Assembly: GCA_964589005.1 (NCBI GenBank)
Contig: CAZPQI010000001.1
Location: 2,144-66,143 of the forward strand
DNA length: 64,000 bases
Origin: an uncultured Candidatus Saccharibacteria bacterium
GTDB taxonomy: Bacteria > Patescibacteriota > Minisyncoccia > Phycocordibacterales > UBA2100
Reading direction: 5' to 3'
Shown here: positions 3,662 to 35,795 of the stretch, piece after piece
How the letters are laid out: every line of letters starts with the position of its first letter
Numbering within the stretch: position 1 is the first letter of the stretch
Notes under the pieces: model-generated
The model's input: only the letters and a program-made list of their open reading frames with translations
Told to the model about the DNA's origin: nothing
Database searches by the model: none
Position numbers and translations under genes: made by a program

Positions 3662-3673
3662 AGTTAATATAGG

Positions 3674-4800: not shown

Positions 4801-4839
4801 AGTATTTTTTTTATTTTTTAATAGGGTAATTAATAGCTT

Positions 4840-5901: not shown

Positions 5902-5909
5902 ACGTGTCG

Positions 5910-7145: not shown

Positions 7146-7185
7146 ATTATTTCTTTAATTATTAATTAATTTTGAAAGTCTTTGC

Positions 7186-8169: not shown

Positions 8170-10206
8170 TTACAACTTAATGCGCTTTAGCAGCATCGCA
8201 TTCGCAACAACAATTACTGTCGAAAGACTCATGAGCAGGGCGCCTATCTCGGGCCGTAAGAAAAATCCCCATACGGCAAACACGCCGGCTGCGGCAGGAA
8301 TCGCTACAATGTTGTATCCAAGCGCCCACACAAGGTTTTGAACCATCTTTTTGTACACCGCGCGCGATAAAACGATAAGACGTACGATGTCGAGCGGGTT
8401 ACTACGCATAAGTACAACATCACCCGACTCCACGGCAACATCAGTACCAGCGCCGATTGCGATTCCTGCGTCGGCTTGCGTAAGCGCCGGAGCGTCATTA
8501 ACACCATCGCCTACCATAAGAACTACCGCGCCACCTTCTTGGAGTTCTTTAACATATTTATATTTATCTTCAGGAAGTACTTCGGCAAAATATTTATCTA
8601 TTCCGAGAGTTGTTGCAACTTCTCTAGCTACCTGTTCGTTGTCACCGGTAAGCATTGCTGTTTTGATACCTAACTCGTGCAATCGGGAAATCGCATCTTT
8701 TGCTTCGGCTTTAATTTTGTCAGAGAGTGTAATAACTCCTAGAACCTCAGTGCTTGTTGCAACAAATACTGTCGTACCCGTTAACACGTTTCCTGAGGGG
8801 ATAGTGTCTTTAAGACCAACTTCTTCCAGTAAGGCTTTGTTACCAACAAAATATTTTGTGCCTTCTATGCTTGCAGTAATTCCTTTTCCAGCGATATTTT
8901 TAAAGTCATCAATTTGTTGAAGCTCTAAAGATTCTTTTTTGGTTTCGTTTAAAATGGATATACCAATAATGTGTGAAGAGTGCTGTTCAAGTGAAGCAGC
9001 TATGCGCAAAATAGCCTCTTTACCAATAGAGCCGAATGAAATAACGTCGGTTACTCCAAATACCCCTTCGGTTAAGGTACCTGTTTTATCAAGAACAACG
9101 TAGTCTGTTTTTTTAATAATCTCAATTTTCTCGAGATTTTTTATAAAGAATCCGTTTTCAACGGCGAGAGATGTTGTAATAGTCGTAACTGTTGGAATAG
9201 CAAGCCCGAGTGCGTGCGGACACGCAATAACTAAAACAGTAATGGCCAATGTAATAGCGAATACAAATGACTGTCCGATTACAAATGTCCATATAAGTAC
9301 TGTAAGTAGAGCAACAATAACCGCAATGAATACAAGCCATGCAGATGCACGGTCAGCTATTTTTTGTGATCGTGGTTTTGTTTTTTGTGCCGCTGTTATA
9401 AGGCTTTTAATTTGGCCCACGGTTGAATGTTCACCAACCCTTGTGAGCTTTATTGTAAGGGCAGTATCGAGGACAATTGACCCAGCGACAAGCTCGTCGG
9501 ATTCTTTTTTTACTATGGGCTTTGATTCTCCCGAAATTAATGATTCGTCAACATTTCCGGAACCGCTAACTACGACACCATCGGCAGGTACTTTTTCTCC
9601 AGGTTTAACAATAACCACGTCTCCTTCGTTAAGTTTTTCAATATCAGTATCAATTTCTTTCCCATCAACTAGCAGGTGCGCTTGTTTTGGTAAAAGTTTT
9701 GCAACTTCTTGTAAGGCGTTTCCTGCAGCTGAGCTCGATTTTGCTTCAAGGTAATGTCCAAAAAGAAGTACCCAAATAAGTGTTGAAATTTCTAAGTAAA
9801 ATTCAACTTGTATCGCAGGTATAAATGTTGAGGCAACTGAGAACAAATAACCCGACGCCACCGCGATAGACACAAGTGTCATCATTCCGTACGAGCGCAT
9901 TTTAATTTCCATCCATGCGTGCTTAAAAAATACGAACGCAAACCCAAAAATAATTGTGGCAATACCAAACGCAATCCATTTTCCAAGTGCGAACGTTGGT
10001 ACATTTAAAAGTCCTGCTACGAACTCATTCGTTATTGCGAGTGGTATCAGCAGGACGGTAACAATCCAGAACCTTTTCAAAAACGCCTCGGCTGAACCAT
10101 GACTCATGCCAGGTGATCCGTGTTCTGCATGCTCTCCTGCGGAAATATTACAGCAGGGGTGAGTTGATGCTTTAGCAGTATGCTGTATGTGGTCGTCGCG
10201 CTTCAT
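8170..10206 (-). CDS. copB: copper-translocating P1B-type ATPase, CopB-like (CPH motif, His-rich N-terminus)
   Basis: DKTGTLT phosphorylation site, GDGVNDAPAL hinge, TM6 CPH motif (IACPHALGLA), His-rich N-term (HAEHGSPGMSHGS). Confidence 0.9.
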   Translation of the reverse strand: MKRDDHIQHTAKASTHPCCNISAGEHAEHGSPGMSHGSAEAFLKRFWIVTVLLIPLAITNEFVAGLLNVPTFALGKWIAFGIATIIFGFAFVFFKHAWMEIKMRSYGMMTLVSIAVASGYLFSVASTFIPAIQVEFYLEISTLIWVLLFGHYLEAKSSSAAGNALQEVAKLLPKQAHLLVDGKEIDTDIEKLNEGDVVIVKPGEKVPADGVVVSGSGNVDESLISGESKPIVKKESDELVAGSIVLDTALTIKLTRVGEHSTVGQIKSLITAAQKTKPRSQKIADRASAWLVFIAVIVALLTVLIWTFVIGQSFVFAITLAITVLVIACPHALGLAIPTVTTITTSLAVENGFFIKNLEKIEIIKKTDYVVLDKTGTLTEGVFGVTDVISFGSIGKEAILRIAASLEQHSSHIIGISILNETKKESLELQQIDDFKNIAGKGITASIEGTKYFVGNKALLEEVGLKDTIPSGNVLTGTTVFVATSTEVLGVITLSDKIKAEAKDAISRLHELGIKTAMLTGDNEQVAREVATTLGIDKYFAEVLPEDKYKYVKELQEGGAVVLMVGDGVNDAPALTQADAGIAIGAGTDVAVESGDVVLMRSNPLDIVRLIVLSRAVYKKMVQNLVWALGYNIVAIPAAAGVFAVWGFFLRPEIGALLMSLSTVIVVANAMLLKRIKL

Positions 10207-16573: not shown

Positions 16574-17230
16574 TCAAGGAGCCTCCTTGACCATTAAATC
16601 AAGCATTTCTGATAAATCTTCAACATCATTTATTTCAATCGGTAATATCTCTTTGTTTAAAATTAGTGATTCGTCTCGCTTAGTTCCAAAATAATCTCTA
16701 TAACTTGAATATTTATACTCCTTTAGAAATTTAGATACTTTGCTCATGTCAGAAATACCGACTTCTTTCCAATCTGGCTCAACTTGGTCAACAGGGTTCA
16801 TATGAATATATGAAATTAACCATCTAAAGTACCCATCACTATCTACATGCTTTGCGCGAAATGGTCTACACATTAGTGGTCCGGTTCTGTCGTACTTTTT
16901 GTTCATATACATAGAAAACGAAGTGAGTAGTTTCTGCATGAAAGCGGAAATACCTCCCTCTTGTTTTTCGAGCAGAAGGAGATGAAAATGATTCGGCATC
17001 ATTGCATATGCACAGACAGTAACGAGTGTGTCACCCCTGTCCAAAGTGTCCAAGGCGACGCCTCGGACACGAGAGGATTTTTTGGTTGGTTTTGTGCTAT
17101 TGCACAGATACAGCAGTCGCTGATAATGCTTCCAATCGCCCTTACTAAAAAATATATTGCGCTTATCTATACCACGATTGTAAACGTGGTAAAACTCTCC
17201 TTCTGTAAATTCTACTGCTCTCTTTGCCAT
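16574..17230 (-). CDS. REP-associated tyrosine transposase (RAYT; IS200/IS605-like Y1 HUH transposase family)
   Basis: HUH motif MPNHFHLLLL, N-terminal FYHVYNRGIDKRNIFF, C-terminal RPFRAKHVD...YIHMNPV (catalytic Tyr region) align with E. coli RAYT YafM motifs; flanked and interrupted by REP-like palindromes. Confidence 0.8.
   Translation of the reverse strand: MAKRAVEFTEGEFYHVYNRGIDKRNIFFSKGDWKHYQRLLYLCNSTKPTKKSSRVRGVALDTLDRGDTLVTVCAYAMMPNHFHLLLLEKQEGGISAFMQKLLTSFSMYMNKKYDRTGPLMCRPFRAKHVDSDGYFRWLISYIHMNPVDQVEPDWKEVGISDMSKVSKFLKEYKYSSYRDYFGTKRDESLILNKEILPIEINDVEDLSEMLDLMVKEAP
17048..17070. repeat. REP-like palindromic element copy R3, located in-frame inside the RAYT ORF
   Basis: gtccaaggcgacgcctcggacac encodes the RVRGVALDTLD segment between the N-terminal motif and HUH motif of the RAYT. 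Confidence 0.75.
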
Positions 17231-17670: not shown

Positions 17671-18116
17671 TTTTTGACAGAATCAATATCTACATTATAC
17701 CAACTTCTGATAAAAATTAGAACGAGTTAAGCAGAACAAGTTTTGCAGCCAAACAATTGGCAAAATGTCATCACTAGCGCCAATTCTGCGAAGTTATGAG
17801 CAGAGAACAAACCAGAAATTTTCTTTTCCTTTTTGAAAAAATTATTAGGGGGCAAAAACAAAGAAACGAAACAATAAAGTAAAGAAAATTTCTGGTTTGG
17901 TTTTGCTGAGCGGAGCGACTTTGTTTGCTTAGGACTGGAAAGAGTTAGCAAACAAGAAGTGCCCTCGTGGTGCGGAGGCGGTGGCGCGGTCGTTCGCGCG
18001 CCCACAGGCGCGCGAGATACAGCACGCGGAGCGTTCCGCTTTGTTAAAGTTACCACGCGCTCGGCGCGTGATTAGCGTTCATCTCGAAAATAGGTTCGGA
18101 TTTGGTCATATAAAGT

Positions 18117-18274
18117 AGCCCGAATAAAACTCGTGTCGTTTTGGGGGAATTTTTGACGCACGGCGCGAAGCGCCGCGTACGGAAACGGGGCATTTTCTTG
18201 GACTTTTTTGTCGTGCAAATGGAGGTTCGATCCGAAGATTTTTCGGAGAGAGGATTTTTTGGAGGGAAGGTCGT
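18117..18274. repeat. IR-L: left copy of a perfect 158-bp inverted repeat flanking serine recombinase 1
   Basis: Exact reverse complement of 19856-20013 (verified base by base at both ends). Confidence 0.9.
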
Positions 18275-18516
18275 GCAAGTTTATATGTGCGCTTGACCCA
18301 CCCACCCGTTCGCGCGCACCAATCCCCACTGTTTTTGAGAGGTATTGTAAAACAGTGGGGATTGCTCCCTCAAAGTGTGTTATATTTCTAGTGCAACCAG
18401 CCGAATTTTTTAAGTCGTGCTCAAAGAGCCGTCTTGGACAGTTCGAATTTATTCGGCTGGTTGCACCAAGGCGGCTTTTTGAGTATTCGCCACATTATCA
18501 ATCTAATTTGTATTAT

Positions 18517-20124
18517 ATGGAACAGAAATATTTTTTGTATGCTCGCAAAAGCACAGATGTCGAGGACAAGCAAGTGCTCTCTATTGAGGCACAACTTGAT
18601 GAGCTACGCGCGGTCGCCAAAAAAGAAAAGCTGGAGATTGCCGATGAATTTGTAGAAAAGAGGACGGCAAAGATGCCAGGGCGAGCTGTGTTTAATGAAA
18701 TGATCGGGAAAATACAGAACGGAGAAGCCCAAGGAATAGTTTGTTGGAAGCTTGATCGCTTGGCGCGCAATCCTGTGGACGGCGGGCAAATAAGTTGGAT
18801 GCTCCAACAAGGTATTATCCAGCACATTCGCGCTCATGACAAAAGCTACTATTCAAATGACAATGTGTTGATGATGTCTGTTGAGTTTGGAATGGCTAAT
18901 CAGTTTATTCGTGATTTAAGCTCAAATGTAAAACGGGGATTGCGAGCGAAAGTAAAGCGCGGAGAATTCCCAAGCACCGCTCCTGTCGGATATTTGAATG
19001 ATGTGCGCAGAAAAACAATTGTCGTTGACAGAAAGAAATCAAAAGTAGTCCGCGCAGCTTTTGAATTGTATTCGCTGGGCAATTCGTGCCTTGAAGATAT
19101 TGCGAACTTTTTTTATGAAAGAGGTGTACGAAGTATATACGGAAACAAATTGCACAAAGACAGAATAAAGTGGATTCTCTCTAATCCTTTTTATTACGGG
19201 CACTTTCGATATGGTGGAGAAATTCACGAGGGCAAACATACTCCGGTTATTGAGAAGCGGCTTTTTGATCAGGTGCAAAAAGTTATGAAAGAAAAAGGAC
19301 ATCCGCAAAAATTGGTAAAAAATCCAAAACCTTTTTGCGGACTTTTGCGATGTGGCACTTGTGAGATGATGATAACAGCAGAAGACAAAGTGAAGCGATG
19401 CAAAAACGGGAATGTGCACAGATATGTCTATTACCACTGCACGAAAAAATCCAAAACAATCAAATGTAAAGAGTCATGTATCAGAGGAGAAGTTTTGACT
19501 GAACAACTTTCAGAAATTCTTTGCGACTATTCCATGCCGTTGTCTTGGATTCAAGAATTTCGATTGTGTATGAGAGAAGATAAGAGAAAAGCAAATCTTG
19601 AATCAGTGAAGATTATTGAGAGTTTAAGAAAAGAAGTTTCGGATATTTCGGAAAAGATACAAAGATTGCTCGATATTTATCTCGCTCAAGATATTGACAG
19701 AGAAACATATCTTAAAGAGCGCTCAAAACTTTTCTCAGAAAAGAAAAGTCTTGAGGAGAAAATATCAAGATTGGAGAGAGATGCCACTGCGTGGCTCGAA
19801 CCTATGCAAGAATGGATTGAAACCGCCTCAACACTGGATAAAATCGGCAAAAGGAACGACCTTCCCTCCAAAAAATCCTCTCTCCGAAAAATCTTCGGAT
19901 CGAACCTCCATTTGCACGACAAAAAAGTCCAAGAAAATGCCCCGTTTCCGTACGCGGCGCTTCGCGCCGTGCGTCAAAAATTCCCCCAAAACGACACGAG
20001 TTTTATTCGGGCTGGCCTCCTCGGGCTAGAACCAAAGTCGGTCAAGCCCTGCAAGGTTATTTCTAACTATTTCAATCTATCAATTCGACGCTCCTCGAGC
20101 ACGTTAAATTTTAAAAAATATTAA
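18517..20124 (+). CDS. large serine recombinase 1 (resolvase/invertase N-domain + recombinase domain + zinc ribbon)
   Basis: Start at ATG 18517 (MEQKYFLYARKSTDVEDKQ... = catalytic Ser motif Y.RKST..Q); recombinase domain and Cys cluster (CGLLRCGTC...C..C). The C-terminal ~85 aa are read through IR-R, so the true stop is uncertain. The listed 18208 start is an artefact of reading IR-L. Confidence 0.8.
   Translation: MEQKYFLYARKSTDVEDKQVLSIEAQLDELRAVAKKEKLEIADEFVEKRTAKMPGRAVFNEMIGKIQNGEAQGIVCWKLDRLARNPVDGGQISWMLQQGIIQHIRAHDKSYYSNDNVLMMSVEFGMANQFIRDLSSNVKRGLRAKVKRGEFPSTAPVGYLNDVRRKTIVVDRKKSKVVRAAFELYSLGNSCLEDIANFFYERGVRSIYGNKLHKDRIKWILSNPFYYGHFRYGGEIHEGKHTPVIEKRLFDQVQKVMKEKGHPQKLVKNPKPFCGLLRCGTCEMMITAEDKVKRCKNGNVHRYVYYHCTKKSKTIKCKESCIRGEVLTEQLSEILCDYSMPLSWIQEFRLCMREDKRKANLESVKIIESLRKEVSDISEKIQRLLDIYLAQDIDRETYLKERSKLFSEKKSLEEKISRLERDATAWLEPMQEWIETASTLDKIGKRNDLPSKKSSLRKIFGSNLHLHDKKVQENAPFPYAALRAVRQKFPQNDTSFIRAGLLGLEPKSVKPCKVISNYFNLSIRRSSSTLNFKKY
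19856..20013. repeat. IR-R: right copy of the 158-bp perfect inverted repeat
   Basis: Reverse complement of 18117-18274. Confidence 0.9.
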
Positions 20125-20666
20125 AAACATTCATCAAGTTGTTCTCTTGTAAGAATCAGAATGTTGTCTGTCTTAAATGTATTTTTACCGACACTAGCTA
20201 AAAACCCTAAGTAATTTCTCAACTTTACGAAAGCCTTAAGTTTCTCTGAAGTCCATGGAATTAAAATTGCGACTCTACCCAAAGCGGACGCATTAACGAA
20301 CCCACCTAGAATATGTTTCCTGCTAACTTTGTTCTCAATCTCTACGCAGAGAAGACAACGAGCATTTTGATTGAAATGTTTCAAGATTGTAAAAAGATGT
20401 TCGTCAATATCTAAATCGAAGGATTTAAGATTTTCGTTATGCTTTTGAATTAGCTTACGAATGAAATCCTCACTGGTTTCTAATAGATTGCTGTATTCTT
20501 CTATATGTTTATTCTCTGTCGCGAACGGGCCAACTGCAGCATCAACTCTCGGAGAGTAAACACTCGAGTCGCCTCTTATTGAAGTCCACTCAATTTCAAC
20601 ATCTTGGTCTGGATAAATTCCTTGTAACTTTCGCTTTAAAAGTGGCTGGTATTCTTTTGGTGTCAT
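20121..20666 (-). CDS. PD-(D/E)xK-like putative nuclease (hypothetical)
   Basis: 181 aa; candidate D (SPRVDAAVGP) and E-x-K (LCVEIENK) arrangement typical of restriction-endonuclease fold; immediately downstream of the 901-aa helicase gene on same strand. Confidence 0.35.
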   Translation of the reverse strand: MTPKEYQPLLKRKLQGIYPDQDVEIEWTSIRGDSSVYSPRVDAAVGPFATENKHIEEYSNLLETSEDFIRKLIQKHNENLKSFDLDIDEHLFTILKHFNQNARCLLCVEIENKVSRKHILGGFVNASALGRVAILIPWTSEKLKAFVKLRNYLGFLASVGKNTFKTDNILILTREQLDECF

Positions 20667-20731
20667 ATTTGGGTGGTTAAACTATTCTTACTTAAAAATA
20701 TCTTAGAAAAGTGACAAAAGTGACACTGGTA

Positions 20732-23437
20732 TCAAAGATTAAACTTTGATGACAACAGCGCTACGTCCTTTCCATTATTCCTTTTCTCCAAGGAACTTAG
20801 GATCTTTTTTTCTGTCTCTGGCGTCCAGTATATTTTCAACTTTTCTCGTGCTCTTGTTATGGCTGTATAGAAAATATTATGTGAGACCATTTCTTCTATT
20901 TCATCTGTAATAACCACTTTAACCGAGTTGTACTCTAAGCCCTGAGCTTTATGGATGGAAACGGCATAAGCAATTTGGAAAGGAACTACTGCATTTGAGG
21001 AAGAATCGTCATCTTCATCAGTACTCCTAAGCCTGTTAACGATAAAGCGAATAGTTGAGTTTTCATTTTCAAGGTTGTCGACTAGTTCAAAGTCATATCT
21101 TTCTGCTTCCCATTCATTTATTGCTCTATCGAGTTCAACATCAAACTGTATTCCGTCTTCCAGAGTCACTATTTGAACTATCTTACCCTTTAAATTGTTG
21201 TAAATAAGGGGCGCAAATCTATCGGATTCATTAAACAATACGGGGTCATTGACTTTATATGTCTGAACGCCCCATTGTTCGGGAGCACTTTCATTACTAC
21301 CCTGCAAAAATTTGTTTATATTATTTATTCCATAAAGTCCGTCATAATTTAGACATAAAATTATTTCGTCAGCTTCCGAGTGCTCAAAAATTGAATCATT
21401 CAAAGTAAATGAATAATCACTTTTGGTAATGTGTTCTAAAATATCTACATCAATATTTCTAACCTTCGTCCACAAATCGAGCAGCTTTGGGTTTTTACTT
21501 CTATAAGGTTTAGTTAATTCAGATACAGAGGTTACTGGAACAAAATCTCGAACCATGCTGAACCAATTTCCAAAACGAATCGATTCTATCTGGAATACAT
21601 CGCCCACTAAAACTAACAACTTGAAAGAAGCTTTGTTTAGTACCTTAAGCATGTCCGCATTGTTGAGCGTACTACACTCGTCGATAACTAATAAGTCATA
21701 CTTTGTATCTTCATTCCTAACAGATAAAAACCTGGTTACTGTCTTGAAGGTAGAACTCCCAACATTTACCCTTCTCCTAAGATTATCAACGGCAGGATTA
21801 GTGTTGGCTAAATAAAGCTTTTCCCTATCGTGAAAGAAATTAGAAATATGGTTTATTAGTGTTGATTTTCCTGTCCCAGCAGAGCCATATACCAACGCCA
21901 CCTCTGATTTTTCAAACATCTGTTTCAGTTTTACCTTTTTCTCATCACAATCGATTTTGTAGGTAGATGATTGTAACCATGAGTCAAAAGACTTTGAGTA
22001 GTTCTTGATACCTTTTAAGGAAAATCCCTTCAATTTTTCAATGATATGGAGAGTGTCTTGTTCATAGCCTTTTATATAGACATGGTCTTTATAGTCTTCT
22101 ATCTTTCGTTGTCCGTGCTTCCAATATAATTTTGCGTTGTATGACCGCATCAGTTCATCAATGTCATCGAAGTTGGTAATATCTTCCCGTGGTGTATAGA
22201 GATTTCCCTTTATTTCAATGTTATTTCTTACCTGTCTTGCGAATAGCTCGTGCTTTCGATCAGTTGGATCTATACAATCGAACAAATCAGAAAGTCTTGG
22301 GTTGTGACCAATTAAAGAAGTATTAAATGGCATTTCATCAAATGGGATGCATCCATAACTAAGTTTTAGACTTGATAATCTTTCGCACTCCCCATGAAAA
22401 TATTGTCGTTTGAGAATTTTATTATTTAGTCTATAAAGCAGGTATCTGATTACATTATTCCCAGGCGCATTATTTTTTGTCAGTTCACGACTTTTATCTA
22501 ACAGGCTGAGGATATGATCCGTTTGCGCTTTTTGAATTATTGCATCTTTAAAACGCTGATAGTAATCATCAGGGAAGTCGATGACTTCAACTAAGTTCGA
22601 TCCGGTCTTTGTTAAAAGTGACATTAGCTCACGGTATTCCTTCGTTCCAGTGCTTATTTTTATGTGCTTACCAAATATGTCGGCAAAATGATCAAGTTCA
22701 CACGGACGAATTGAGACTTCCCAATTATCAATAATTTGGATTGGCATCTCCTTACCCACAACTTCTATAGAGTCATTACTAACGGCAAGCTTTACAGCAT
22801 AATTGGGAGATATATCTAATTTTGTGAAAGCAATAATTCGATCGAATTTACTTGCATTATCAATCGCCGTTGTAAAAGTCACTTCATAATAAACTTCATG
22901 ATTAACGAAAAATGGTTTTATCTTTTGGATGTAATATCTATCCCTATATGTGCTTCTTATTCTTGATGACTCAGACTGATTAATCTTCTCCGTGATTTTT
23001 TCGTAATACGCTTTTAATGCAGGATCAAGTGTTATGGGAAATTTATCAATGTTCTCCAAAAGATCCATACCATATTTACTTTTCATGAAGGATTTTATTT
23101 TGAGCAAATACTCGTAGTACTTCAGCATCAATCTCTCTGAATTCTCCTCACCGAGAGTATAGTGAGAAGCAGAAATCTGCAGAAGTTTATGAAGTCTACT
23201 CAAAAATTTTAGATCCCCTCTTACCTTGATGAAAGTTTCAGCCTTTTTAATATTTTCGTATGTATTTTCAGTGTCTTTACCGGCGCCGTATATTTTTAAT
23301 GAAATATGTTCAACAAAATTTCTGAGTTGAGATAAGAGGTTCTGCGATAGCAAACCTCTTTCAGAGTCATCAAATTTACTGATGTTCTCACATATAACTT
23401 TATTGGTATTCAAAATGTGATCATCAATCTTTCTCAT
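20732..23437 (-). CDS. large protein: ~480-aa N-terminal domain of unknown function + C-terminal SF1 (RecD/Dda-like, AAA_30 + UvrD_C_2) helicase
   Basis: Walker A VALVYGSAGTGKSTLI, Walker B LLVIDECS, LVGDVFQ, and C-terminal SIHKAQGLEY...FYTAITRAR motifs of SF1B helicases; N-terminal half has no recognisable family. Confidence 0.7.
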   Translation of the reverse strand: MRKIDDHILNTNKVICENISKFDDSERGLLSQNLLSQLRNFVEHISLKIYGAGKDTENTYENIKKAETFIKVRGDLKFLSRLHKLLQISASHYTLGEENSERLMLKYYEYLLKIKSFMKSKYGMDLLENIDKFPITLDPALKAYYEKITEKINQSESSRIRSTYRDRYYIQKIKPFFVNHEVYYEVTFTTAIDNASKFDRIIAFTKLDISPNYAVKLAVSNDSIEVVGKEMPIQIIDNWEVSIRPCELDHFADIFGKHIKISTGTKEYRELMSLLTKTGSNLVEVIDFPDDYYQRFKDAIIQKAQTDHILSLLDKSRELTKNNAPGNNVIRYLLYRLNNKILKRQYFHGECERLSSLKLSYGCIPFDEMPFNTSLIGHNPRLSDLFDCIDPTDRKHELFARQVRNNIEIKGNLYTPREDITNFDDIDELMRSYNAKLYWKHGQRKIEDYKDHVYIKGYEQDTLHIIEKLKGFSLKGIKNYSKSFDSWLQSSTYKIDCDEKKVKLKQMFEKSEVALVYGSAGTGKSTLINHISNFFHDREKLYLANTNPAVDNLRRRVNVGSSTFKTVTRFLSVRNEDTKYDLLVIDECSTLNNADMLKVLNKASFKLLVLVGDVFQIESIRFGNWFSMVRDFVPVTSVSELTKPYRSKNPKLLDLWTKVRNIDVDILEHITKSDYSFTLNDSIFEHSEADEIILCLNYDGLYGINNINKFLQGSNESAPEQWGVQTYKVNDPVLFNESDRFAPLIYNNLKGKIVQIVTLEDGIQFDVELDRAINEWEAERYDFELVDNLENENSTIRFIVNRLRSTDEDDDSSSNAVVPFQIAYAVSIHKAQGLEYNSVKVVITDEIEEMVSHNIFYTAITRAREKLKIYWTPETEKKILSSLEKRNNGKDVALLSSKFNL

Positions 23438-23459: not shown

Positions 23460-23765
23460 TCAACCTGCAATCTCCTTAAACCGCTTTAAAGAAACTATAC
23501 TGGATACGTAATTTCTAGCAGAAAACCTATCTTTGGTAACATCATCAATAATAAACGGATCGCTTCCAAACATCGCCCATTTACTTGAAAGGTCTTCGGC
23601 AGCAATTCCTTGCTTTAACATGTCTTCGAAATCTTCATCTACAATTTTCTTACAAGCAGCCACAGCCTCTTCATACGTTGAAAACTCTCCGTGATTAGTC
23701 CTCTCGCTCTCATCCATGTAGTGGAAGTTATCGTCTACCATTACTATGTATCGTTTCTCTGTCAT
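23460..23765 (-). CDS. hypothetical acidic small protein
   Basis: 101 aa ORF co-oriented with neighbours; no motif recognised. Confidence 0.35.
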   Translation of the reverse strand: MTEKRYIVMVDDNFHYMDESERTNHGEFSTYEEAVAACKKIVDEDFEDMLKQGIAAEDLSSKWAMFGSDPFIIDDVTKDRFSARNYVSSIVSLKRFKEIAG

Positions 23766-23803: not shown

Positions 23804-24886
23804 TTATTTGACCTTGATCTGCTTAACCAGCTTTAATAAGTCTTCTTCTCTCTCATATGCCCTGAATCTTCCTGTGAGTATTCCTGAGCGATATGAGATT
23901 CCATCACTCATAAGTCGCCAGTTTGTACCTTCTAAAGCCTCTCTAGCTATCTTTTGGAGTTCATATGAACTTTCGCGATCTCTACGCTCGGACTTAGTAT
24001 CGTATGTGGTAAAAGGTAAGAATAGGTCTTTACTCATATCTGGAGTACCAAATTGTAGTTTTGTATATCCCTGCTTCTCAAAGACAGGAGCTAGTAATTC
24101 TTCAAGCTCGATAACGGTTAGTTTCTTTATCTTCTCAACTTCGTCATAGACATCTTTATTCTCTTCTCGCTCCTCAACTTCCTTTATTAACTTACCTAGC
24201 TCTTTCATGTTGTTCATCGCTTCAGCATATTTTCTGCCTTCTTCCTCACTACAAAATCGCGCGCGATCCTTTTCATATTCAGGATCGTGTTTCTCCTTTT
24301 TGTTTGCAGTTCTTGGAATCTCACTCACTTCGACGTAATCACAGTCTGGACACGTTGATGTCATTTTAAATACATCATCAGTATCTTCATCTACTTGTTC
24401 AAAAACAGATTGGCACTTTGGACACTTCGGTTTGTTATATTTCCATTCTTCGCCGCTATCATAAAACGAGCGCATTGGAGTGTGCCCAAGTGTGCATTTA
24501 TACATAAAAAGAACTCTGTCGGGTTTATCTAAATTTGTATCTAAATGTTTTGACTCAACGAATACCTCTCTGCTACAGGTAAGACAAGTAATTCCATCAG
24601 GAGCTTCTGCAGTTTCGTAAAAGCGGTCGTGTGCTTCGTCTTCACTCATCCACTTAGAAATAGTTTCTTCTTTTTGTTCATACATACCTCCTTGAACAAA
24701 AAACAAGTGAAGTTCATTGAATGCTTTCGTAAGGTGTTTCTCTTCACTCTTATCTATTTTTTCCTCGTGATGTTTTAGAACCTTGGGGCCATCAATCGCT
24801 CCTTCAGCCCATCGGCAATGTTCAACCGTCATGCGATCATAACGATCAATATACTCTTGTTTTGGTTTTAAATATTTCATTGACAC
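23804..24886 (-). CDS. hypothetical protein with three zinc-ribbon-like Cys pairs and coiled-coil/charged C-terminal half
   Basis: CLTCS...C, CPKCQ, CPDCD motifs; highly charged KE-rich C-terminus. Confidence 0.45.
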   Translation of the reverse strand: MSMKYLKPKQEYIDRYDRMTVEHCRWAEGAIDGPKVLKHHEEKIDKSEEKHLTKAFNELHLFFVQGGMYEQKEETISKWMSEDEAHDRFYETAEAPDGITCLTCSREVFVESKHLDTNLDKPDRVLFMYKCTLGHTPMRSFYDSGEEWKYNKPKCPKCQSVFEQVDEDTDDVFKMTSTCPDCDYVEVSEIPRTANKKEKHDPEYEKDRARFCSEEEGRKYAEAMNNMKELGKLIKEVEEREENKDVYDEVEKIKKLTVIELEELLAPVFEKQGYTKLQFGTPDMSKDLFLPFTTYDTKSERRDRESSYELQKIAREALEGTNWRLMSDGISYRSGILTGRFRAYEREEDLLKLVKQIKVK

Positions 24887-28409: not shown

Positions 28410-31235
28410 TTATTTTAATAACCCACCAATAGTTGATTGTATTGTTATTTTTTCTGTAGGAACAATTATATATCTCCAGGGTTTTACAATTCCAAATTTA
28501 CCAACATTTTCATTTACAACTTTACAATATTCCTCAGCAGTAGTTTTTTTAGCCTGAACGTCTGGTGTGTTTATTTCGTCTCTTGGCTTTACTTCAATCA
28601 TCACTATTTCTTTTTCAAACTCAACCACAAAGTCAGGCTCATATCGATGATGCGACGCTCCGTCAGAATCACGCCAATAGAGTCCTTCAAATTGATTCGG
28701 TGCAGGTCTAAGCCAATCACTCACTGTAGAATCACGATCTAAAAGATAGGCTAGTCTGGCTTCATCAGAGGAGTCAAATTTGTATTGTGCATGGCAAGCA
28801 TTATTAAACCCAGTGTAAGTATGTTCTCGCGAAAAAGTATCAAGTTGAGAATCTAGTGTTACAGGATTTGTTGCAGAAGATATATTATATTGCTCAAGCC
28901 AAGGCTTCGGCTCGGTAACACCTGAATCTAAATATCCTTCTGATTTCAATTCTTTATGAGATACTATTTGTTCATAAATATCATCGGCTATTGACCGAGC
29001 ATTACTTTCAACAATCAATGCTAGATTGTCATCATCAACAGCTTTCTTTTTATAGTGAGTTACAGCCTGTTTTGCTAGTTTCAATAACAAAGGTCTCTGT
29101 GTTTTGTCATCATAGTCGACCAAAGGAAAGTCCAAGAGCGCTGCTATAATTGTGCTCTCTGGCGACTGTTTATTTTTTGCTCCAAAACTTGTTATTTGTG
29201 TGACTTGCGTCATGCGTCTTCCAGGAACATCCTTGCCAAACAAGTCTACATCGCGCTCACCTTGAAGTTGTTCTTCTAAAATTGCTCTCTCATTAGTATA
29301 AGACTGAAGCGCGTTAATACTAGTATCCAAATCAAAATCATGGATTATTAACTCTCCATAATGCGGAGTAAGAATAAGCCTTGGTATTGGTATGTTTCTT
29401 GTCTCTAAATTAGCGCGTACACCTTTCGCAATCTCAGAAAGTTCATCTTGCACATTTGAATTGAACGAACCAAACAACGTATCAGAGCCAAAAGACATAC
29501 CTGTGCTAGATTTTGTTGTTTGACCATGAAATTCTGAGAAAGAGAGATTTTTTGCTGTTTCTTTAGCTGCTACCCCAACCAATTCTTCGGTTTTCATTTC
29601 AAGCATCTTTTCCTTAACGCTGTCTTCCATATTTTCAGTAAGTGGCATTTTTGTAATTGATTCCGTAACTTTCTGTTCAATCTCCTGCATGATCACTTCA
29701 TTCTTTCTAATTTCATTAGCAATATCCTGCAATATAATAGGCTGAATTTCTTTTAAAACCCTGACTTCTTTTACTTCCTTTTCAGATATTTTCTCAACTT
29801 GTCCCTGTATAAGAGTTGAGTCTTTAGCAAGCTCAATCACCCTGGAATATTGTCCGTGTGCAACTATAACGAGTCTATCTACTAGAGGCACACCAGTTCT
29901 CTCACCGTATGGCAATCGTAAGCCACGACCGATTGTTTGTTCAGTTAATATTGCTGCTGCTGAAGCACGTAATGGCGCAATTGTGTATATATTTGTTACA
30001 TCCCACCCTTCTTTAAGCATGTTTACATGTATAACGACCTCCACAATATTTTCGTGATCCTCAAGCGAGATTAATTTTTCAATACTTTCGTCATATTTAC
30101 TTCCGCGGAGTTTTGTATGTATTTCTATTACTTTTCCTTTGAATTCTCCATTTCTAAAATCACCACTATCAATCAAGATCCTTAATTCTCTTGCATGATC
30201 CGTGTCCTTTGCCACCACAAGTAATACGGGTTTTATAACTTGCTTGTTATTTTCAAGTGCATATTCCTTAAGCGCATTTTTTGCGCGTTCATGAAAGAAT
30301 GCTGCCAATTGTAATTTACGCGCATCTGTTTCAATTGATTCGTTATCAAACTGTTTAAAATCTACATCAGCTTCAGTTCCTATCCATGGATCTTTAACAA
30401 GTTTTCCACGAATTGCATCTCCAAGATTGTAAGTATATAAAACATTCTTCATTCTAATTTGCTGAGCATTCTTGCCGCTTCCTTTGGTGCCAAGATATGG
30501 GGTTGCTGTCATTTCTAAACCAAACAACGGATCCATTAAATCAAAAGCTCCAAGTGCGGCATCTGCGTGGTAATGGTGTGCCTCATCAAGCATCACGACT
30601 AAATCATCATGTTCTTTTAGATAATCAAAATATGATTCTCCAGCTGTTTCCCATGCCTTCGTGATACCACGCTCGTTCGTCATATCTTTTTGCGCAAATT
30701 GCTGGATATTAAAAATATTGATTTCAATCTGGTTACCGAAAAGTGACTGCCCGCGTTGTTGAGCATAATTGTCTGTAGTAATAACTTTTGCTGTATTTAT
30801 ATTTATCTCCTGAATGCCTTTAAAAACATACTTTGGATTATTTGCTTTACTAAAATCATCATACAACTTTCTATATATAGTAAGATTTGGCGCCACAATC
30901 AAAAAATGTTGGATATTATAAACAAGATAAAGATACGCCACAAAGGTACCCATAAGCCGTGTTTTGCCGACGCCTGTGGCTAACGCAAAAGTGTAAGCAG
31001 GATATGTGCGTTCAAAATCTTCAAACTTGTCGGCCTCAGGAATGTTTTTAAAATATTTTACTGATTCAGCCAAAATTTCACTTGTGTTTCCGCGATTTCC
31101 TTTTTTCATCCGCGCCAATACTTTTTGTCCTACAGGTGACTCCAAATAATCAGCAAAAAGCTTCAAGCTTTTTGCTTGTGGTATATGCAAACTCATTACG
31201 CCATTTAGATATTTAATCGCTTGCCCTGGTTTCAT
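28410..31235 (-). CDS. res: Type III restriction enzyme Res subunit (SF2 helicase + C-terminal PD-(D/E)xK endonuclease)
   Basis: Walker A TGVGKTRLM, DEAH box VMLDEAHHY, helicase C motifs, C-terminal YEPDFVVE...MIEVKPRDE nuclease motif. Confidence 0.85.
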   Translation of the reverse strand: MKPGQAIKYLNGVMSLHIPQAKSLKLFADYLESPVGQKVLARMKKGNRGNTSEILAESVKYFKNIPEADKFEDFERTYPAYTFALATGVGKTRLMGTFVAYLYLVYNIQHFLIVAPNLTIYRKLYDDFSKANNPKYVFKGIQEININTAKVITTDNYAQQRGQSLFGNQIEINIFNIQQFAQKDMTNERGITKAWETAGESYFDYLKEHDDLVVMLDEAHHYHADAALGAFDLMDPLFGLEMTATPYLGTKGSGKNAQQIRMKNVLYTYNLGDAIRGKLVKDPWIGTEADVDFKQFDNESIETDARKLQLAAFFHERAKNALKEYALENNKQVIKPVLLVVAKDTDHARELRILIDSGDFRNGEFKGKVIEIHTKLRGSKYDESIEKLISLEDHENIVEVVIHVNMLKEGWDVTNIYTIAPLRASAAAILTEQTIGRGLRLPYGERTGVPLVDRLVIVAHGQYSRVIELAKDSTLIQGQVEKISEKEVKEVRVLKEIQPIILQDIANEIRKNEVIMQEIEQKVTESITKMPLTENMEDSVKEKMLEMKTEELVGVAAKETAKNLSFSEFHGQTTKSSTGMSFGSDTLFGSFNSNVQDELSEIAKGVRANLETRNIPIPRLILTPHYGELIIHDFDLDTSINALQSYTNERAILEEQLQGERDVDLFGKDVPGRRMTQVTQITSFGAKNKQSPESTIIAALLDFPLVDYDDKTQRPLLLKLAKQAVTHYKKKAVDDDNLALIVESNARSIADDIYEQIVSHKELKSEGYLDSGVTEPKPWLEQYNISSATNPVTLDSQLDTFSREHTYTGFNNACHAQYKFDSSDEARLAYLLDRDSTVSDWLRPAPNQFEGLYWRDSDGASHHRYEPDFVVEFEKEIVMIEVKPRDEINTPDVQAKKTTAEEYCKVVNENVGKFGIVKPWRYIIVPTEKITIQSTIGGLLK

Positions 31236-31240
31236 AATAT

Positions 31241-32851
31241 TTATTCGTTATTATCATCATCCAAATCAATCTCTTCAAGCGCAGACTTTTTTATTGGAAG
31301 TAGATACTCTTTTTTTCCAAAGTGACACGACTTCAAAACTGACTGCGGAATCTTTTTAATCATAATCCGATCATCTACCTTATCTGCTCCTGGCTCAAAT
31401 TTCTTTGGGCAAATAACAAGTGATTCTCCTTCATCGAGGTGCGCCATGATTTGTTGGACCATACCAGTAGTAAGAAATTGTGTCGTGACATATAGATAGT
31501 TTTTCCCTTGACCTACTCCATGCTTCCAATACTCTGTCTCGCTTGGCTTATAGGTGAAATTCATCAGTTTACACATCGCTTTAATGAGCTTTGTATCATT
31601 ATAAAAGTCATCAATTACTGGATTACCGAATTCGTCATTTACTATGAAACTTGGTGCCAACTCATAAAATTTATATGCGCCGCCGCCTTCCCATTCGAGT
31701 GTTTCAGAAAGTTTTAAACCATCAGTACCACTAATCACTTTATCCAAGCGCGCTTTGCAGTGTGTGTAAGCGTGATCACCCATTTCAATACCAATGTATT
31801 TTCGACCCATTTTATGTGCAACGGCAGCGGCAGTACCTGAACCCAAAAAAGAATCAAGGATTAAATCTCCCTTTTTTGTCGATAATTCAAAAACTCTTTT
31901 AATTAATCTTTCTGGCTTAGGGGTAGTAAACACATCATTAGGATTAATTTTAATAACTTCCTTTTTTGCTTCATCGTTGTGTCCAACTTCACCATGCAAT
32001 AATATAGTAGTAGCTTTTCTACCTTGTTGAACTTCAGACAAGAATTGCTTGAAAGCCGGTATGGACTTACCATTTTTACCAAAAACAACTCTGTTGTCCT
32101 TAATCATTGCCATCATTTTCTTCTCATTAAAAGCCCAATGCTTTCCAAGAGGAGCATCAAATTGATCCCCATGTGGTCCAGTTATAATATAATGACCGTT
32201 TGTACGTTCCTCGTTTGAAATTAAGTCACCAGGTTTCCATGGCCCTCTTGGATCATTGTCTGGGTTTTTATATCGCTTGTTCATTTCTTCAGTCCTCTCA
32301 AGTAAATTAAAATCTAACTTACTCTCATTCCTTGCATATACAAGAATATACTCATGATCTATAGATATTCGTTTAGATTGATTTTTAGGACTATAAACTT
32401 TTTGCCATATTAATGTACATACGTTATTTTTGCGGCCAAAAACTTCATCAGCTAAAACCCTAAGATAAGGCATCTCGTTGTCATCAATTGATATAAAAAT
32501 GACTCCATCTTCATGCTTTAAAAAAGATTTCAGAAGTTCGAGCCTTGGTTTCATCAGGGATAACCAAGTTGAATGTTCAACACTGTCATCATAATGGTCA
32601 AAAGCACTCCTGGTATTGTACGGTGGGTCAATGTAAATACATTTAACTTCCCCTGCATACTCTGGAAGAAGTGCCCTAAGTGCTAAAAGATTATCACCAT
32701 GGATTATCATATTCTCGGTATTTGGATCATTCTTACAATTAGAAAGTTTTGGGTCCTCTTCTAAAATTCGTGGCTCAATATTAGCAATATCGTATTCGGG
32801 ATTGCTCTTTCCTATCCATGTAAGTTCTAGTTTTTGTTTGTTTTTACTCAT
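31241..32851 (-). CDS. mod: Type III restriction-modification Mod subunit (beta-class N6-adenine DNA methyltransferase)
   Basis: Motif IV IYIDPPYNT and C-terminal motif I DSFLGSGTAAAVA; 5-nt gap to res, 4-nt gap to SNF2 gene. Confidence 0.85.
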   Translation of the reverse strand: MSKNKQKLELTWIGKSNPEYDIANIEPRILEEDPKLSNCKNDPNTENMIIHGDNLLALRALLPEYAGEVKCIYIDPPYNTRSAFDHYDDSVEHSTWLSLMKPRLELLKSFLKHEDGVIFISIDDNEMPYLRVLADEVFGRKNNVCTLIWQKVYSPKNQSKRISIDHEYILVYARNESKLDFNLLERTEEMNKRYKNPDNDPRGPWKPGDLISNEERTNGHYIITGPHGDQFDAPLGKHWAFNEKKMMAMIKDNRVVFGKNGKSIPAFKQFLSEVQQGRKATTILLHGEVGHNDEAKKEVIKINPNDVFTTPKPERLIKRVFELSTKKGDLILDSFLGSGTAAAVAHKMGRKYIGIEMGDHAYTHCKARLDKVISGTDGLKLSETLEWEGGGAYKFYELAPSFIVNDEFGNPVIDDFYNDTKLIKAMCKLMNFTYKPSETEYWKHGVGQGKNYLYVTTQFLTTGMVQQIMAHLDEGESLVICPKKFEPGADKVDDRIMIKKIPQSVLKSCHFGKKEYLLPIKKSALEEIDLDDDNNE

Positions 32852-32855
32852 AATC

Positions 32856-35795
32856 TTATATTACCTTAAATCTAATCGTGAATAAGGTCGTAAGAGTCAT
32901 TTTTTGGTTTAGTTGTGCCTCTATTCTGTCTAATAAATCTCCTTTTTTTACATCAACCTCATCTTGCGATTTATAGAGCTTCTGTCTCATTTCGTTTCTT
33001 TTCTTTTCCAAATCCTTTATTTCTCTTTGAATCTTTACTTTCTTTTCCAAATCCAGCACTTTCTTTGCGCTCGTTTTCATCGCCTTGAGATCAATATCCA
33101 TGCGCTTTAAATCTAACTCCAAGCTCTTTTTTAAATCTTCTGCCCAATTATCAAGCTTGTCTACCTCAGCGTCAAAAAATTCACTGTTTCGCTCTGCAAT
33201 CTCTCCAGAAGTTATTTTAATAGTTTGCTTTTCAAACTCATCAATATATTTTTTTTCATCATCACTTAAGTCATTGCAATCACTATACTGCCCAGAAAGT
33301 GAGAAAAGTTTTTTGGCAATTTCTGGTTCTATTTTTTCACCACTTGCATCAATTGCAGATACAACTATATGATCTTCTTTCTCAAATGCTTGAACCGTAT
33401 AATTTGAAACCCTAATTATTCCACTCTTACCTGCTAATGGCTTTAGCACAGAAATGATCGTCTTGTGGTTAATAAAATCAAAAGTAATTTCTTTTACAGG
33501 CAATTCCTTATTTTTTACTTCGGTCAAAATCCTTTGAGCTAATGGGTGGCCAGGGCGATACACATGAGAATCTTCAATATTATTTCCTATTTTATATGGC
33601 CCAGGTGGAATGGTCTCTTCTTTAAATGGATTATTTTTTAATAAAAAAGAATATTCATCTTCCGCAAAATCTGCCTTATCACCTAAATAATATTTTGTCG
33701 TCTCCCATAACCATCTTTCGTATGTATCAAGATACCTCTTACTTTCATCAAGGTTTAGTCGTAATTTTTCATGTACTTCAACATCAAAATTTTCAAGCAA
33801 TTTCTGCTTAGCATCACCCATATTCTCTTGAATGCTCTCATCCATCTCCTGCTGGAGTTTGTCAAATGCATTGTTTATATCTTCCTCGCTACGACACGTT
33901 TGATAAATAGATGATATTCGTTTTTCAAAATCTACACCTGATTCAATGACCCCAAGTATTTCATCACTAGCACCAAATACTCCTTTAAATAATCTGAATT
34001 TCTGGTCGAGTAGCTCAAAGACTCGCTGATCTGCTGCATTCTTTCTATTTATGAAATTGATCACGACAACGTCATATTTTTGACCATAACGATGACAACG
34101 CCCTATTCTCTGCTCAATACGCTGAGGGTTCCAAGGTAGGTCGTAATTTATTACCAAAGAACAAAATTGAAGATTTATACCTTCTGCACCTGCCTCAGTA
34201 GCAATCATTATTTCTGCCTCATCTTTAAAGTAATCAACAATAGCAGCACGCATGTCTGCTGTTTTGAGTCCGGTTATTTTATCTGTGTCTTTATGTTTAT
34301 CTAACCAATCTGTATAAACCTCTTTTGACTTTGGATCATTGTTGGAACCATTAAATAAAACTATCTTCCCTTTATAACCATTGTCAGAAAGCAACTCTAA
34401 TAAATAATCTTGTGTAATTCTAGATTCTGTAAATATTATAGCCTTTTTTTGAGCACCAAATTCCTCAGCTTTTTGGAATCCCTTTTGAAGACCTATTAGT
34501 AAAGCGTCACCCTTTGAATTTTTCCAAATCTTTTTTGCAAGGTCTCTATATTTCTCTAGATCCTTCTTTTCAGCTTCCATTGCCACAATGTCTTTTTGTG
34601 TAAAAACTTTATCGTTATCTTTCTCATCGTCGTTTTCTTCTTCATCGTCAAGCCACTCATCAGATAATTCATCAAACGAATCAAAGTTTTCTTCTATTCC
34701 AGGAATACCTAAATCTGACGAAACTTGTTTGTTCTTTGCTTCCTCAATAAGTTTTTCTAATTTATATGCGAGATTATTTAATGTACTAGCGATAGCAAAA
34801 GTAGAGGATGCTAACAATTTTCTAAGAATAAGTGACATCAAGTGTCTTTGGCTCGCAGGTAACGCATACAACCTCGGTCTCTGAAGATATTCCGTCATTT
34901 CATCATAAAGTTCTATTTCTTCTTCGGAAGGAATATAGTCCTGTGTTAAGGGGATGCGTTTTGTATATTTAATATATTCTAAAACTTGTTTTCTAAGCGT
35001 TCTAATACAAACAGTCTTTAGCCGATTTCTTAAATTGAGAAACATCTCTTGCCTCGGCTCAACTAAGCCTAATTCATTTTCATAAATATCCTGCACTTGA
35101 GAAACTCGGGCGTATTGTGCTTTAAAACTTTTAAGGTCACCAAAAATATGATCGTCAATGATGCTAACGAGTCCGTATAACTCTAGTAGCGAATTTTGAA
35201 GAGGTGTGGCAGTAAGTAAGATTTTTGGAACATTTTCAAGTGATTTTTTTATCTCTTTAGCAATTTTATTCTTGGGCTTATATACATTTCTAAGCCTGTG
35301 AGCTTCGTCTATAATCACAAGATCCCAAGATGTCTGTTTTACATATGGAGATTTATTGCGAGCAAAATGATACGAACAAATAACAATACAATCTTCCTGA
35401 TTAAAGGGGTTGAGATTGCCATCCTTTACGACTTGGTTAAATGATTTCGCCTCTAGAATTGTAGAAGGAAGAAAAAACTTTTCTTGAAGCTCCGTCATCC
35501 ATTGTTTTCGCAAATTTGATGGAACAATAAGAAGTATTGTTCTTTTTCTCTCCGCCCATTTTTGAGAAATGACGAGACCTGCTTCAATTGTTTTTCCTAA
35601 ACCAACCTCATCAGCCAGAATTGCGCCCTTTGAGAGTGGTGAACGAAAAGCAAACAGAGCAGCTTCAATCTGATGTGGGTTTAAATCAATTTGTGCATTA
35701 GATAATGTTGACGTAAGCTTGTTCAAACTGTCCGAAGAACTTCGCTTGGTTAGCTCGTAAGCATAATATTTTGCATGATAATCAGTGATTTTCAT
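32856..35795 (-). CDS. SNF2-family helicase with ~350-aa C-terminal domain of unknown function
   Basis: GLGKT Walker A, DEAH box VIIDEAHRLRN, helicase C (QRIGRCHRYGQ); C-terminal 620-979 region (coiled-coil rich) unrecognised. Confidence 0.8.
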   Translation of the reverse strand: MKITDYHAKYYAYELTKRSSSDSLNKLTSTLSNAQIDLNPHQIEAALFAFRSPLSKGAILADEVGLGKTIEAGLVISQKWAERKRTILLIVPSNLRKQWMTELQEKFFLPSTILEAKSFNQVVKDGNLNPFNQEDCIVICSYHFARNKSPYVKQTSWDLVIIDEAHRLRNVYKPKNKIAKEIKKSLENVPKILLTATPLQNSLLELYGLVSIIDDHIFGDLKSFKAQYARVSQVQDIYENELGLVEPRQEMFLNLRNRLKTVCIRTLRKQVLEYIKYTKRIPLTQDYIPSEEEIELYDEMTEYLQRPRLYALPASQRHLMSLILRKLLASSTFAIASTLNNLAYKLEKLIEEAKNKQVSSDLGIPGIEENFDSFDELSDEWLDDEEENDDEKDNDKVFTQKDIVAMEAEKKDLEKYRDLAKKIWKNSKGDALLIGLQKGFQKAEEFGAQKKAIIFTESRITQDYLLELLSDNGYKGKIVLFNGSNNDPKSKEVYTDWLDKHKDTDKITGLKTADMRAAIVDYFKDEAEIMIATEAGAEGINLQFCSLVINYDLPWNPQRIEQRIGRCHRYGQKYDVVVINFINRKNAADQRVFELLDQKFRLFKGVFGASDEILGVIESGVDFEKRISSIYQTCRSEEDINNAFDKLQQEMDESIQENMGDAKQKLLENFDVEVHEKLRLNLDESKRYLDTYERWLWETTKYYLGDKADFAEDEYSFLLKNNPFKEETIPPGPYKIGNNIEDSHVYRPGHPLAQRILTEVKNKELPVKEITFDFINHKTIISVLKPLAGKSGIIRVSNYTVQAFEKEDHIVVSAIDASGEKIEPEIAKKLFSLSGQYSDCNDLSDDEKKYIDEFEKQTIKITSGEIAERNSEFFDAEVDKLDNWAEDLKKSLELDLKRMDIDLKAMKTSAKKVLDLEKKVKIQREIKDLEKKRNEMRQKLYKSQDEVDVKKGDLLDRIEAQLNQKMTLTTLFTIRFKVI

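Follow-up and report, generated by a model that had tools for sequence, protein, structure and literature searches.

Introduction

Do two co-oriented genes that lie side by side in a defence island form one system, or are they neighbours by chance? The question is raised by a 64,000-nucleotide stretch of DNA from an uncultured Candidatus Saccharibacteria bacterium (contig CAZPQI010000001.1), referred to here as the window. In it, an open reading frame (ORF) for a 901-residue protein with a helicase domain (20732..23437, minus strand) is followed, across a 65-nt gap (20667..20731, minus strand), by an ORF for a stand-alone 181-residue protein with a predicted restriction endonuclease-like fold (20121..20666, minus strand). 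The initial annotation described the two as a two-gene module, and its account of the ORFs, their orientation and the gap is accurate. The module itself did not withstand the comparisons reported below. We think it rather probable that two independent defence-island genes have been juxtaposed, one a self-contained cassette of PDC-S53, a candidate family of the PADLOC collection in whose name the "S" denotes a single-gene candidate, and the other an autonomous, probably dimeric, endonuclease of an unnamed defence-island family.

Co-occurrence of the two genes

The pair was sought from both sides. The 181-residue protein, used as a tblastn query, had no homologue in any of eighty genome loci that carry a PDC-S53 homologue and were taken with up to 6 kb of flanking sequence (0/80). 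The same search of 78 viral PDC-S53 loci was negative (0/78), as was a search of the whole viral collection with the profile of the 181-residue family. Conversely, no PDC-S53 homologue was present in any of 89 loci of the 181-residue family, 39 of which extend at least 2.5 kb upstream. The only other sighting of the pair, in L179, is this locus over again (99.75% DNA identity). Absence of the pair outside this genome, which the initial annotation itself had offered as grounds for giving up the module, is what these searches returned.

Boundaries of homology at the DNA level tell the same story. The closest relatives of the helicase (87% and 80% amino acid identity) have other genes upstream, and their neighbours differ on both sides; no homologue of the 181-residue protein was found in the 595 nt downstream of the 87%-identical relative. 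When the window was compared with loci L177 and L176 by blastn, homology started exactly at the helicase start codon (23437) and stopped at 20707-20711, about 25 nt past its stop codon and before the start of the 181-residue ORF at 20666. Because homology stops inside the gap, the shared DNA unit excludes the 181-residue gene.

Clustering of the neighbours in the 80 genome loci revealed no conserved partner of PDC-S53. The recurrent neighbours are large serine recombinases (9/80 loci), subunits of Type I restriction-modification (R-M) systems, PDC-S06, Type III-like (REase_III-like) proteins and UvrD-like proteins. Homologues of PDC-S53 adjoin REase_I and MTase_I genes, and the window copy lies near a Type III R-M system and a DrmD-like gene. 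Given the lack of co-occurrence, the cassette-limited DNA homology and the absence of a conserved neighbour, we conclude from these sequence comparisons that the helicase gene travels as a single-gene cassette through defence islands. Since the 181-residue family, for its part, is found beside many defence systems, its adjacency to the helicase is best put down to chance, and the comparisons identify the two genes as chance neighbours rather than a conserved two-gene system.

The 901-residue protein and the PDC-S53 family

The 901-residue protein is matched from end to end by the PADLOC PDC-S53 model PDLC05035 (E = 0, 1352 bits, residues 1-899 against positions 1-894 of 900) in PADLOC-DB 2.0.0, the set of defence-system models used here, and by this match it is a member of an already catalogued candidate family. 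The window gene also shares the single-gene behaviour of PDC-S53 and its setting among R-M and defence genes, and no difference at the family level was found. The initial annotation had likened the two genes to nuclease-plus-helicase pairs while finding no convincing match to any. Neither window protein matches the HamA, HamB or Nhi-named PADLOC models, and Hachiman membership was rejected, but the larger protein does have a close match, in PDC-S53. Guilt-by-embedding in loci of BREX, DISARM and Type I R-M is the basis on which the PDC families were put forward as predicted candidates for phage defence (Payne et al. 2024, bioRxiv 10.1101/2024.01.29.577857). The literature that we searched contains no mention of PDC-S53.

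In the C-terminal half, AAA_30 (residues 505-665, E = 5e-19), Viral_helicase1 and UvrD_C_2 (residues 823-868, E = 2e-12) all exceed their Pfam cut-offs, and the family profile matches PDB chains of RecD, RecD2, Pif1 and Dda. Together with the conserved motifs, these matches delimit a superfamily 1B (SF1B; RecD/Dda/Pif1-type) helicase core at residues ~502-876 (20810..21934, minus strand). Its motifs comprise Walker A (GSAGTGKST, 518-526), Walker B (DECS, 586-589), motif III (GDxxQ, 612-616) and motifs V/VI (SIHKAQGLEY, 827-836, and YTAITRA, 857-863), and the residues of these motifs do not vary across the diverged alignment A4 of the family (36-51% identity). Judged by these motifs, this half is an intact SF1B helicase, as the initial annotation had stated. 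The likeness to RecD2, RecD, Dda and Pif1 thus extends to all helicase motifs and to sequence homology with solved chains, whereas the N-terminal region of ~500 residues is absent from those enzymes. With 116.7 bits against a cut-off of 500 for the RecD2 equivalog model (TIGR01448), and coverage of residues 401-875 only, the protein is not RecD2.

The earlier statement that the N-terminal half belongs to no recognisable family also holds: residues 1-500 matched no Pfam or NCBIfam model, also when cut into fragments and scanned at E≤10, and no PDB sequence. An AlphaFold 2 (AF2) model of this region, built from 74 sequences (predicted local distance difference test score, pLDDT, 85.3; predicted template modelling score, pTM, 0.83), comprises a helical domain (residues 1-152; 22982..23437, minus strand) with R39 and H92 invariant in alignment A4, a beta sub-domain of five long strands (residues 167-241; 22715..22939, minus strand) with E185 and K197, and a region of no recognisable family (residues 245-455; 22073..22705, minus strand) with E247, Y332, F366, P370 and H378, which the model subdivides into helical (245-345) and alpha/beta (346-455) parts. 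A Foldseek search of the model against PDB returned nothing at E≤1e-3 and no relaxase, Rep or nuclease fold. The sole coherent signal was between the beta region and OB-fold single-stranded DNA (ssDNA)-binding proteins, namely Rim1 (probability 0.96), Mtb SSB (0.82) and LEF-3 (0.84). Because all of these matches have E>0.1, the assignment of residues 167-241 to an OB-like barrel is tentative. In the diverged alignment, R39, H92, E185, Y332, F366, P370, L375 and H378 are invariant and K197, E247, Q345 and N434 are among the near-invariant residues; this conserved set could form a metal or substrate site.

The model and the Pfam scan both bear on mobility. Matches to TraA and TraI in NCBIfam are confined to the helicase part and fall far below cut-off, and no HUH or 3-His domain of the kind that defines MobF/TraA-type relaxase-helicases was found at the N-terminus. 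The relaxase or Rep reading was rejected on the lack of a Pfam match in residues 1-500 and of any relaxase or Rep structure in the Foldseek search, in keeping with the initial view that a MobF relaxase is unlikely.

The family is very widespread. We found more than 4699 matches, 65-87% identical over the full length, in phyla that include Patescibacteria, Bacillota, Bacteroidota and Gammaproteobacteria, and homologues are present in 506 species-representative genomes, one of them a Nanoarchaeota metagenome-assembled genome. A phmmer search of 1.84 billion representatives with residues 1-480 yielded 972 clusters, and in every full-length match listed this region is the N-terminus of a ~900-residue protein.

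Mobile elements carry the family as well, which raises the possibility that the 901-residue protein serves phages, plasmids or integrative islands as a Dda/RecD-like helicase in replication or recombination, for their own DNA metabolism, and is not an immune gene. It matches phrog_325 ("Dda-like helicase") over its full length, and homologues of full length are carried by two cultured temperate phages, at least 60 IMG/VR contigs and five plasmids; the three copies that were checked (from phage TPDSL_ph1, IMG/VR and an L. plantarum plasmid) all match the PDC-S53 model. In the L. plantarum plasmid the gene comes after rep and DUF536 genes, serine recombinases are nearby in 9 of the 80 genome loci, and conservation across phyla is unusually high, as would suit a housekeeping-like function for the element. 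However, the neighbours of PDC-S53 are R-M and other defence genes rather than replication modules, and it was within BREX, DISARM or Type I R-M loci that the family was first recovered as an embedded gene. The TPDSL_ph1 copy lies beside the repressor on the strand opposite to the replication genes, the gene is within 2.6 kb of the contig end in ~11 of 34 non-redundant viral loci, a moron-like position, and a prophage clade pairs PDC-S53 with an LmuA/HamA-like protein. On balance we consider a role in element replication improbable.

On the L. plantarum plasmid (NZ_CP137848.1, L182; 10.7 kb, mobilisable), the PDC-S53 homologue is followed by a gene for a 502-residue GHKL-type (HATPase_c_3) ATP-binding protein (3340-7950 for the two). 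Proteins with HATPase_c_3 likewise precede the 181-residue family gene in L081.

A partnered prophage clade of PDC-S53

In the prophage-borne clade, which was found on viral contigs and shares ~48% identity with the window protein, a conserved co-directional gene for a protein of ~280-310 residues lies immediately upstream of the helicase gene. This gene was recognised in 17 of 27 upstream neighbours by BLAST and in 40 viral loci with a hidden Markov model (HMM); examples are L180 5146-5982 and L209 4035-4979, with about 38 others, and the cultured phage TPDSL_ph1 has the same arrangement. The first ~140 residues of the partner match the PADLOC LmuA model (E from 1e-13 to 6e-16) and, weakly, HamA/DUF1837 (2e-4). 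The partner HMM had no match in the window and none in the 80 genome loci. The conserved LmuA/HamA-like partner implies, as far as sequence can tell, that an arrangement of helicase and putative effector exists in the PDC-S53 family, but elsewhere and without the 181-residue protein. Nuclease-plus-helicase pairing does occur in this clade of PDC-S53, where it involves a different, upstream partner with an LmuA/HamA-like N-terminus. The clade, single-gene in the PADLOC scheme, may really be a two-gene system.

In Hachiman, HamB is an SF2 helicase and HamA is a DUF1837 nuclease. The resemblance of the window locus to Hachiman consists of a helicase in a defence island and, in the prophage clade, of a partner whose N-terminus resembles LmuA/HamA. 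It differs in that the 901-residue protein is SF1B rather than SF2 and the LmuA/HamA-like partner was not found in the window.

The 181-residue family

No Pfam, NCBIfam or PADLOC model matches the 181-residue protein, and the profile of its family matched neither PDB sequences nor PHROGs. The family comprises 167 clusters in a single-sequence search and at least 636 in a profile search. The best 120 members listed, some of them from the Bacillus cereus group, are stand-alone proteins of 180-260 residues annotated as "hypothetical".

An AF2 model built from 45 sequences (pLDDT 94.5, pTM 0.90) has its elements in the order alpha-beta-beta-(three helices)-beta-alpha-beta-alpha. The putative active site consists of D42 on strand 2, E109-x-E111 on strand 3 and K117-H118 at the start of the next helix (20313..20543, minus strand), and these five residues are invariant in the 45 sequences, which are 43-72% identical to the window protein. 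The pattern expected of the PD-(D/E)xK fold, an alpha-beta-beta-beta-alpha-beta core whose second and third strands bear acidic residues, accompanied by a lysine, is present, with the lysine displaced from its canonical position. Proteins of the restriction endonuclease fold dominate the Foldseek matches: in PDB these were PvuRts1I (E = 0.034), YaeQ, 3ijm and Cfr10I; in BFVD the best was a Synechococcus-phage "restriction endonuclease" (E = 8.8e-3, probability 0.95), followed by PDDEXK-like, MmcB-like, DUF559 and Cas4 proteins. Thus the PD-(D/E)xK-like label given by the initial annotation is upheld by the predicted fold and the invariant residues but not by a Foldseek match at E≤1e-3, of which neither database gave any. 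The evidence supports, short of proof, a distant, variant PD-(D/E)xK-type protein. Its top structural neighbours are small enzymes of the restriction endonuclease fold, a kind that includes Type IV enzymes such as PvuRts1I or Mrr, the viral "restriction endonuclease" and MmcB-like proteins, and with which it shares the acidic residues on strands 2 and 3. It differs from them in its D...ExE...KH variant, in having no domain for DNA recognition or modification reading, and in belonging to no sequence family.

The contexts of the family are diverse. Its genes lie beside GmrSD_N, Vsr/C5-methyltransferase and HATPase_c_3 genes (L081), HamA-HamB of Hachiman (L085, L093), PDC-S06 (L095, L119), Type I HsdR (REase_I; L104), BrxL (L121, L153), Ppl (L140), an Old/AriA/GajA-like ATPase (L117), a HerA-like gene (L107) and an MkoA/C-like gene (L128). 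In the B. cereus group the neighbour is a Lamassu/ABC-3C-type CTD7-MC3-LmuB_C set. In Brevibacillus the gene follows rlmH with an OLD-like ATPase and an SF1 helicase alongside, in Gorillibacterium it is near Shedu, and on plasmid pBb, the one plasmid occurrence, it follows a DUF6602 protein gene in an island that also has AAA-ATPase and HNH genes. The family was not found in the phage and viral collections.

Over 71 non-redundant loci, 38 of 62 genes upstream of the family member are co-directional with it and within 100 nt, as are 24 of 55 genes downstream. The 138 neighbours in these loci carry 98 Pfam families, led by AAA_21, SMC_N, AAA_23, Resolvase, ResIII and AAA_15, so that the list is headed by defence ATPases, nucleases and recombinases, and no single family dominates. 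No methyltransferase family is among the 25 most frequent, and an R-M pairing of the 181-residue protein with a methyltransferase was rejected on that count. A role as the fixed end gene of serine-recombinase elements was rejected too: a recombinase lies within three genes in just 4 of the 71 loci and in the window. The 181-residue gene is, to judge by these neighbourhoods, a defence-island gene without a fixed partner. Embedded defence genes such as PrrC in Type I R-M and BrxU in BREX offer a parallel, in that members of the family lie co-directionally within numerous defence operons or at their ends; it differs from them in being missing from PADLOC-DB 2.0.0 and in having no preferred host system.

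A wider claim can be put forward tentatively. The family may be an unrecognised, partner-independent nuclease that joins at least a dozen mechanistically unrelated defence operons, internally or at the 3' end, among them Hachiman, BREX, Lamassu, Type I R-M, PDC-S06, Ppl, OLD-like, GmrSD-like and PDC-S53 loci. It may supply any of them with an added or reserve effector, or may itself be a new, minimal defence of the restriction type. We regard this as possible, although we would not bet on it.

The same neighbourhoods lend something to the view that a lineage-specific pair has arisen in the window, in which a PDC-S53 sensor recruited the 181-residue nuclease as its effector, much as Hachiman HamB controls HamA. 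Members of the 181-residue family usually lie directly downstream of defence proteins of the nucleoside triphosphatase type, the helicase has no nuclease domain, the two genes are co-oriented across 65 nt with no terminator-like site, and the obligate-looking LmuA/HamA-N-like partner in 40 viral loci means that partner use does occur in PDC-S53. Against this stand the three co-occurrence counts of zero, the 87%-identical helicase without a 181-residue homologue downstream, and the shared DNA unit that ends before the 181-residue gene. Moreover, systems upstream of the 181-residue family already have effectors of their own, for example HamA with HamB or the CTD7-MC3-LmuB set. Recruitment of this kind therefore seems unlikely to us.

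Less likely still is that the 181-residue protein has no catalytic activity and serves as a regulator or DNA-binding adaptor, or that it is a repair enzyme which goes along with DNA-targeting systems in the way that Vsr does with Dcm. Its small size without a sensor domain, the lysine out of its usual (D/E)xK place, the lack of a significant structural match and the solitary members with long intergenic gaps (Brevibacillus, Gorillibacterium) would fit, but five residues invariant over 43-72% identity are what one expects of an active site, defence genes make up the overwhelming part of the neighbourhood, and no Vsr-like association with a methyltransferase was seen.

Layout of the locus and its island

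Upstream of the helicase gene and co-oriented with it lie two further ORFs, one of 101 residues (23460..23765, minus strand), 22 nt from the helicase gene, and one of 360 residues with CxxC zinc-ribbon-like motifs (23804..24886, minus strand). Both were rejected as partners after a search of the 80 loci of PDC-S53 and the 89 of the 181-residue family. The 101-residue ORF belongs to no Pfam, NCBIfam or PADLOC family and has no homologue among these loci; it is not a conserved partner. For the 360-residue ORF, Pfam and NCBIfam scans gave no family above threshold. Its link to PDC-S53 is a loose one. In L035 a homologue of 34% identity (8711-9796) follows the PDC-S53 gene after 10 nt, L003 has a fragment (9-227), and the order relative to PDC-S53 varies. 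No terminator-like site was found in the gap between the helicase and the 181-residue gene, and for this reason the two may be co-transcribed in the window; the promoter and terminator scan was itself uninformative, with 20 promoter-like sites observed and 16.8 expected.

The initial annotation placed the pair inside a mobile or defence island, and the content of the region bears this out. A stretch of low G+C content (0.36 against ~0.42) extends over ~18.1-36.8 kb, its part at 20-36 kb containing both genes, and ends near a tRNA-Gln gene (36761-36834). According to Pfam and PADLOC it contains two large serine recombinases, a Type II methyltransferase with a helix-turn-helix protein, a Type III R-M system (res, 28410-31235; mod, 31241-32851) and a DrmD-like SNF2 ATPase (32856-35795). 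In four Patescibacteria loci (L003, L017, L023, L046), PDC-S53 homologues are flanked by SR2-like recombinases (54-58% identical) and MT_25132-like methylases (46-54% identical), which suggests a mobile backbone common to these loci and the window island. Just outside the island lies an ORF for an IS200-like Y1 transposase (16574-17230, minus strand; Pfam Y1_Tnp, E = 1.5e-5), with short hairpin-forming inverted repeats near it (17044-17069/17260-17285 and 17808-17835/17872-17899).

One of the serine recombinase genes (18517..20124, plus strand) converges on the 181-residue gene and is bracketed by a perfect 158-bp inverted repeat, with one arm (18117-18274) upstream of its start and the other (19856-20013) inside its 3' coding end. 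Related recombinases (24-38% identical) in three loci have the same geometry, with perfect repeats of 78-149 bp (L116 10026-10158/11644-11776, L008 9674-9751/11258-11335 and L115 1619-1767/3046-3194); SR2-type recombinases and the L140 recombinase have no such flanking repeats. A minus-strand ORF (18072..18329) passes through the repeat in the same frame, so that it would yield an identical 52-residue peptide followed by a different tail. By its structure, the recombinase with its repeats looks like a self-inverting gene cassette; if flipped, the recombinase would be co-directional with, and just downstream of, the string of 360-, 101-, 901- and 181-residue ORFs. The repeat also affects ORF calling. 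A mechanically called 638-residue ORF for the recombinase (18208..20124, plus strand) is over-extended at the 5' end because the repeat arm is open in that frame (the JGI call is 535 residues from 18517), and a 111-residue ORF over the other arm (19694..20029, plus strand) is probably spurious.

Mechanism and significance

If the two genes are independent, as we favour, both most likely ride on a serine-recombinase-borne island beside tRNA-Gln. Family memberships, the lack of co-occurrence, cassette boundaries, folds, conserved residues and contexts are what was observed; an anti-phage function of either gene, nuclease activity and the mode of sensing are inferred. PDC-S53 would be an SF1B ATP-driven 5'->3' ssDNA translocase/helicase, and its N-terminal half, with helical domains and an OB-like barrel, is most likely the sensor or DNA-engaging part. 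This half could engage phage replication or recombination intermediates, such as ssDNA and forks, or a phage protein, upon which the motor would block phage DNA replication or trigger abortive infection. The effector would be the motor itself, proposed because no nuclease domain is detectable, or an uncharacterised site drawn from H92, E185, K197, E247 and H378. The existence of the partnered clade suggests that the helicase acts as a sensor. The 181-residue protein would be a metal-dependent endonuclease. Genes of its family insert within or 3' of a wide range of defence operons that are unrelated to one another, probably sharing their transcripts, and the product would serve as a stand-alone restriction-type nuclease or an add-on back-up nuclease rather than as a dedicated partner of the helicase.

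Several observations weigh against this account. The genes for 360, 101, 901 and 181 residues are co-oriented with short gaps and no predicted terminator, which leaves room for local co-expression and cooperation. The prophage clade uses a partner protein, so that the helicase alone may sometimes be insufficient. The phage and plasmid copies are annotated as Dda-like and are also compatible with a role in element replication. Finally, the PDC families are candidates by prediction, and a defence function of either window gene is likewise putative.

For annotation, these results mean that PDC-S53 should not be labelled a nuclease-helicase pair. It is a very widespread and unusually conserved candidate, for which domain boundaries, candidate functional residues and the contrast between solo and partnered forms are now supplied; what is new on the family is the tentative OB-like barrel in its N-terminal half and the prophage clade with an upstream partner. 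That PDC-S53 comes both as a solo clade and as a prophage clade accompanied by an LmuA/HamA-like protein hints that the helicase may act as a sensor for an effector. The more novel element is the 181-residue family, which is uncatalogued in Pfam, NCBIfam and PADLOC 2.0. It is a new candidate for a defence or accessory function and, because it tags along with many defence systems, one that would be cheap to test.

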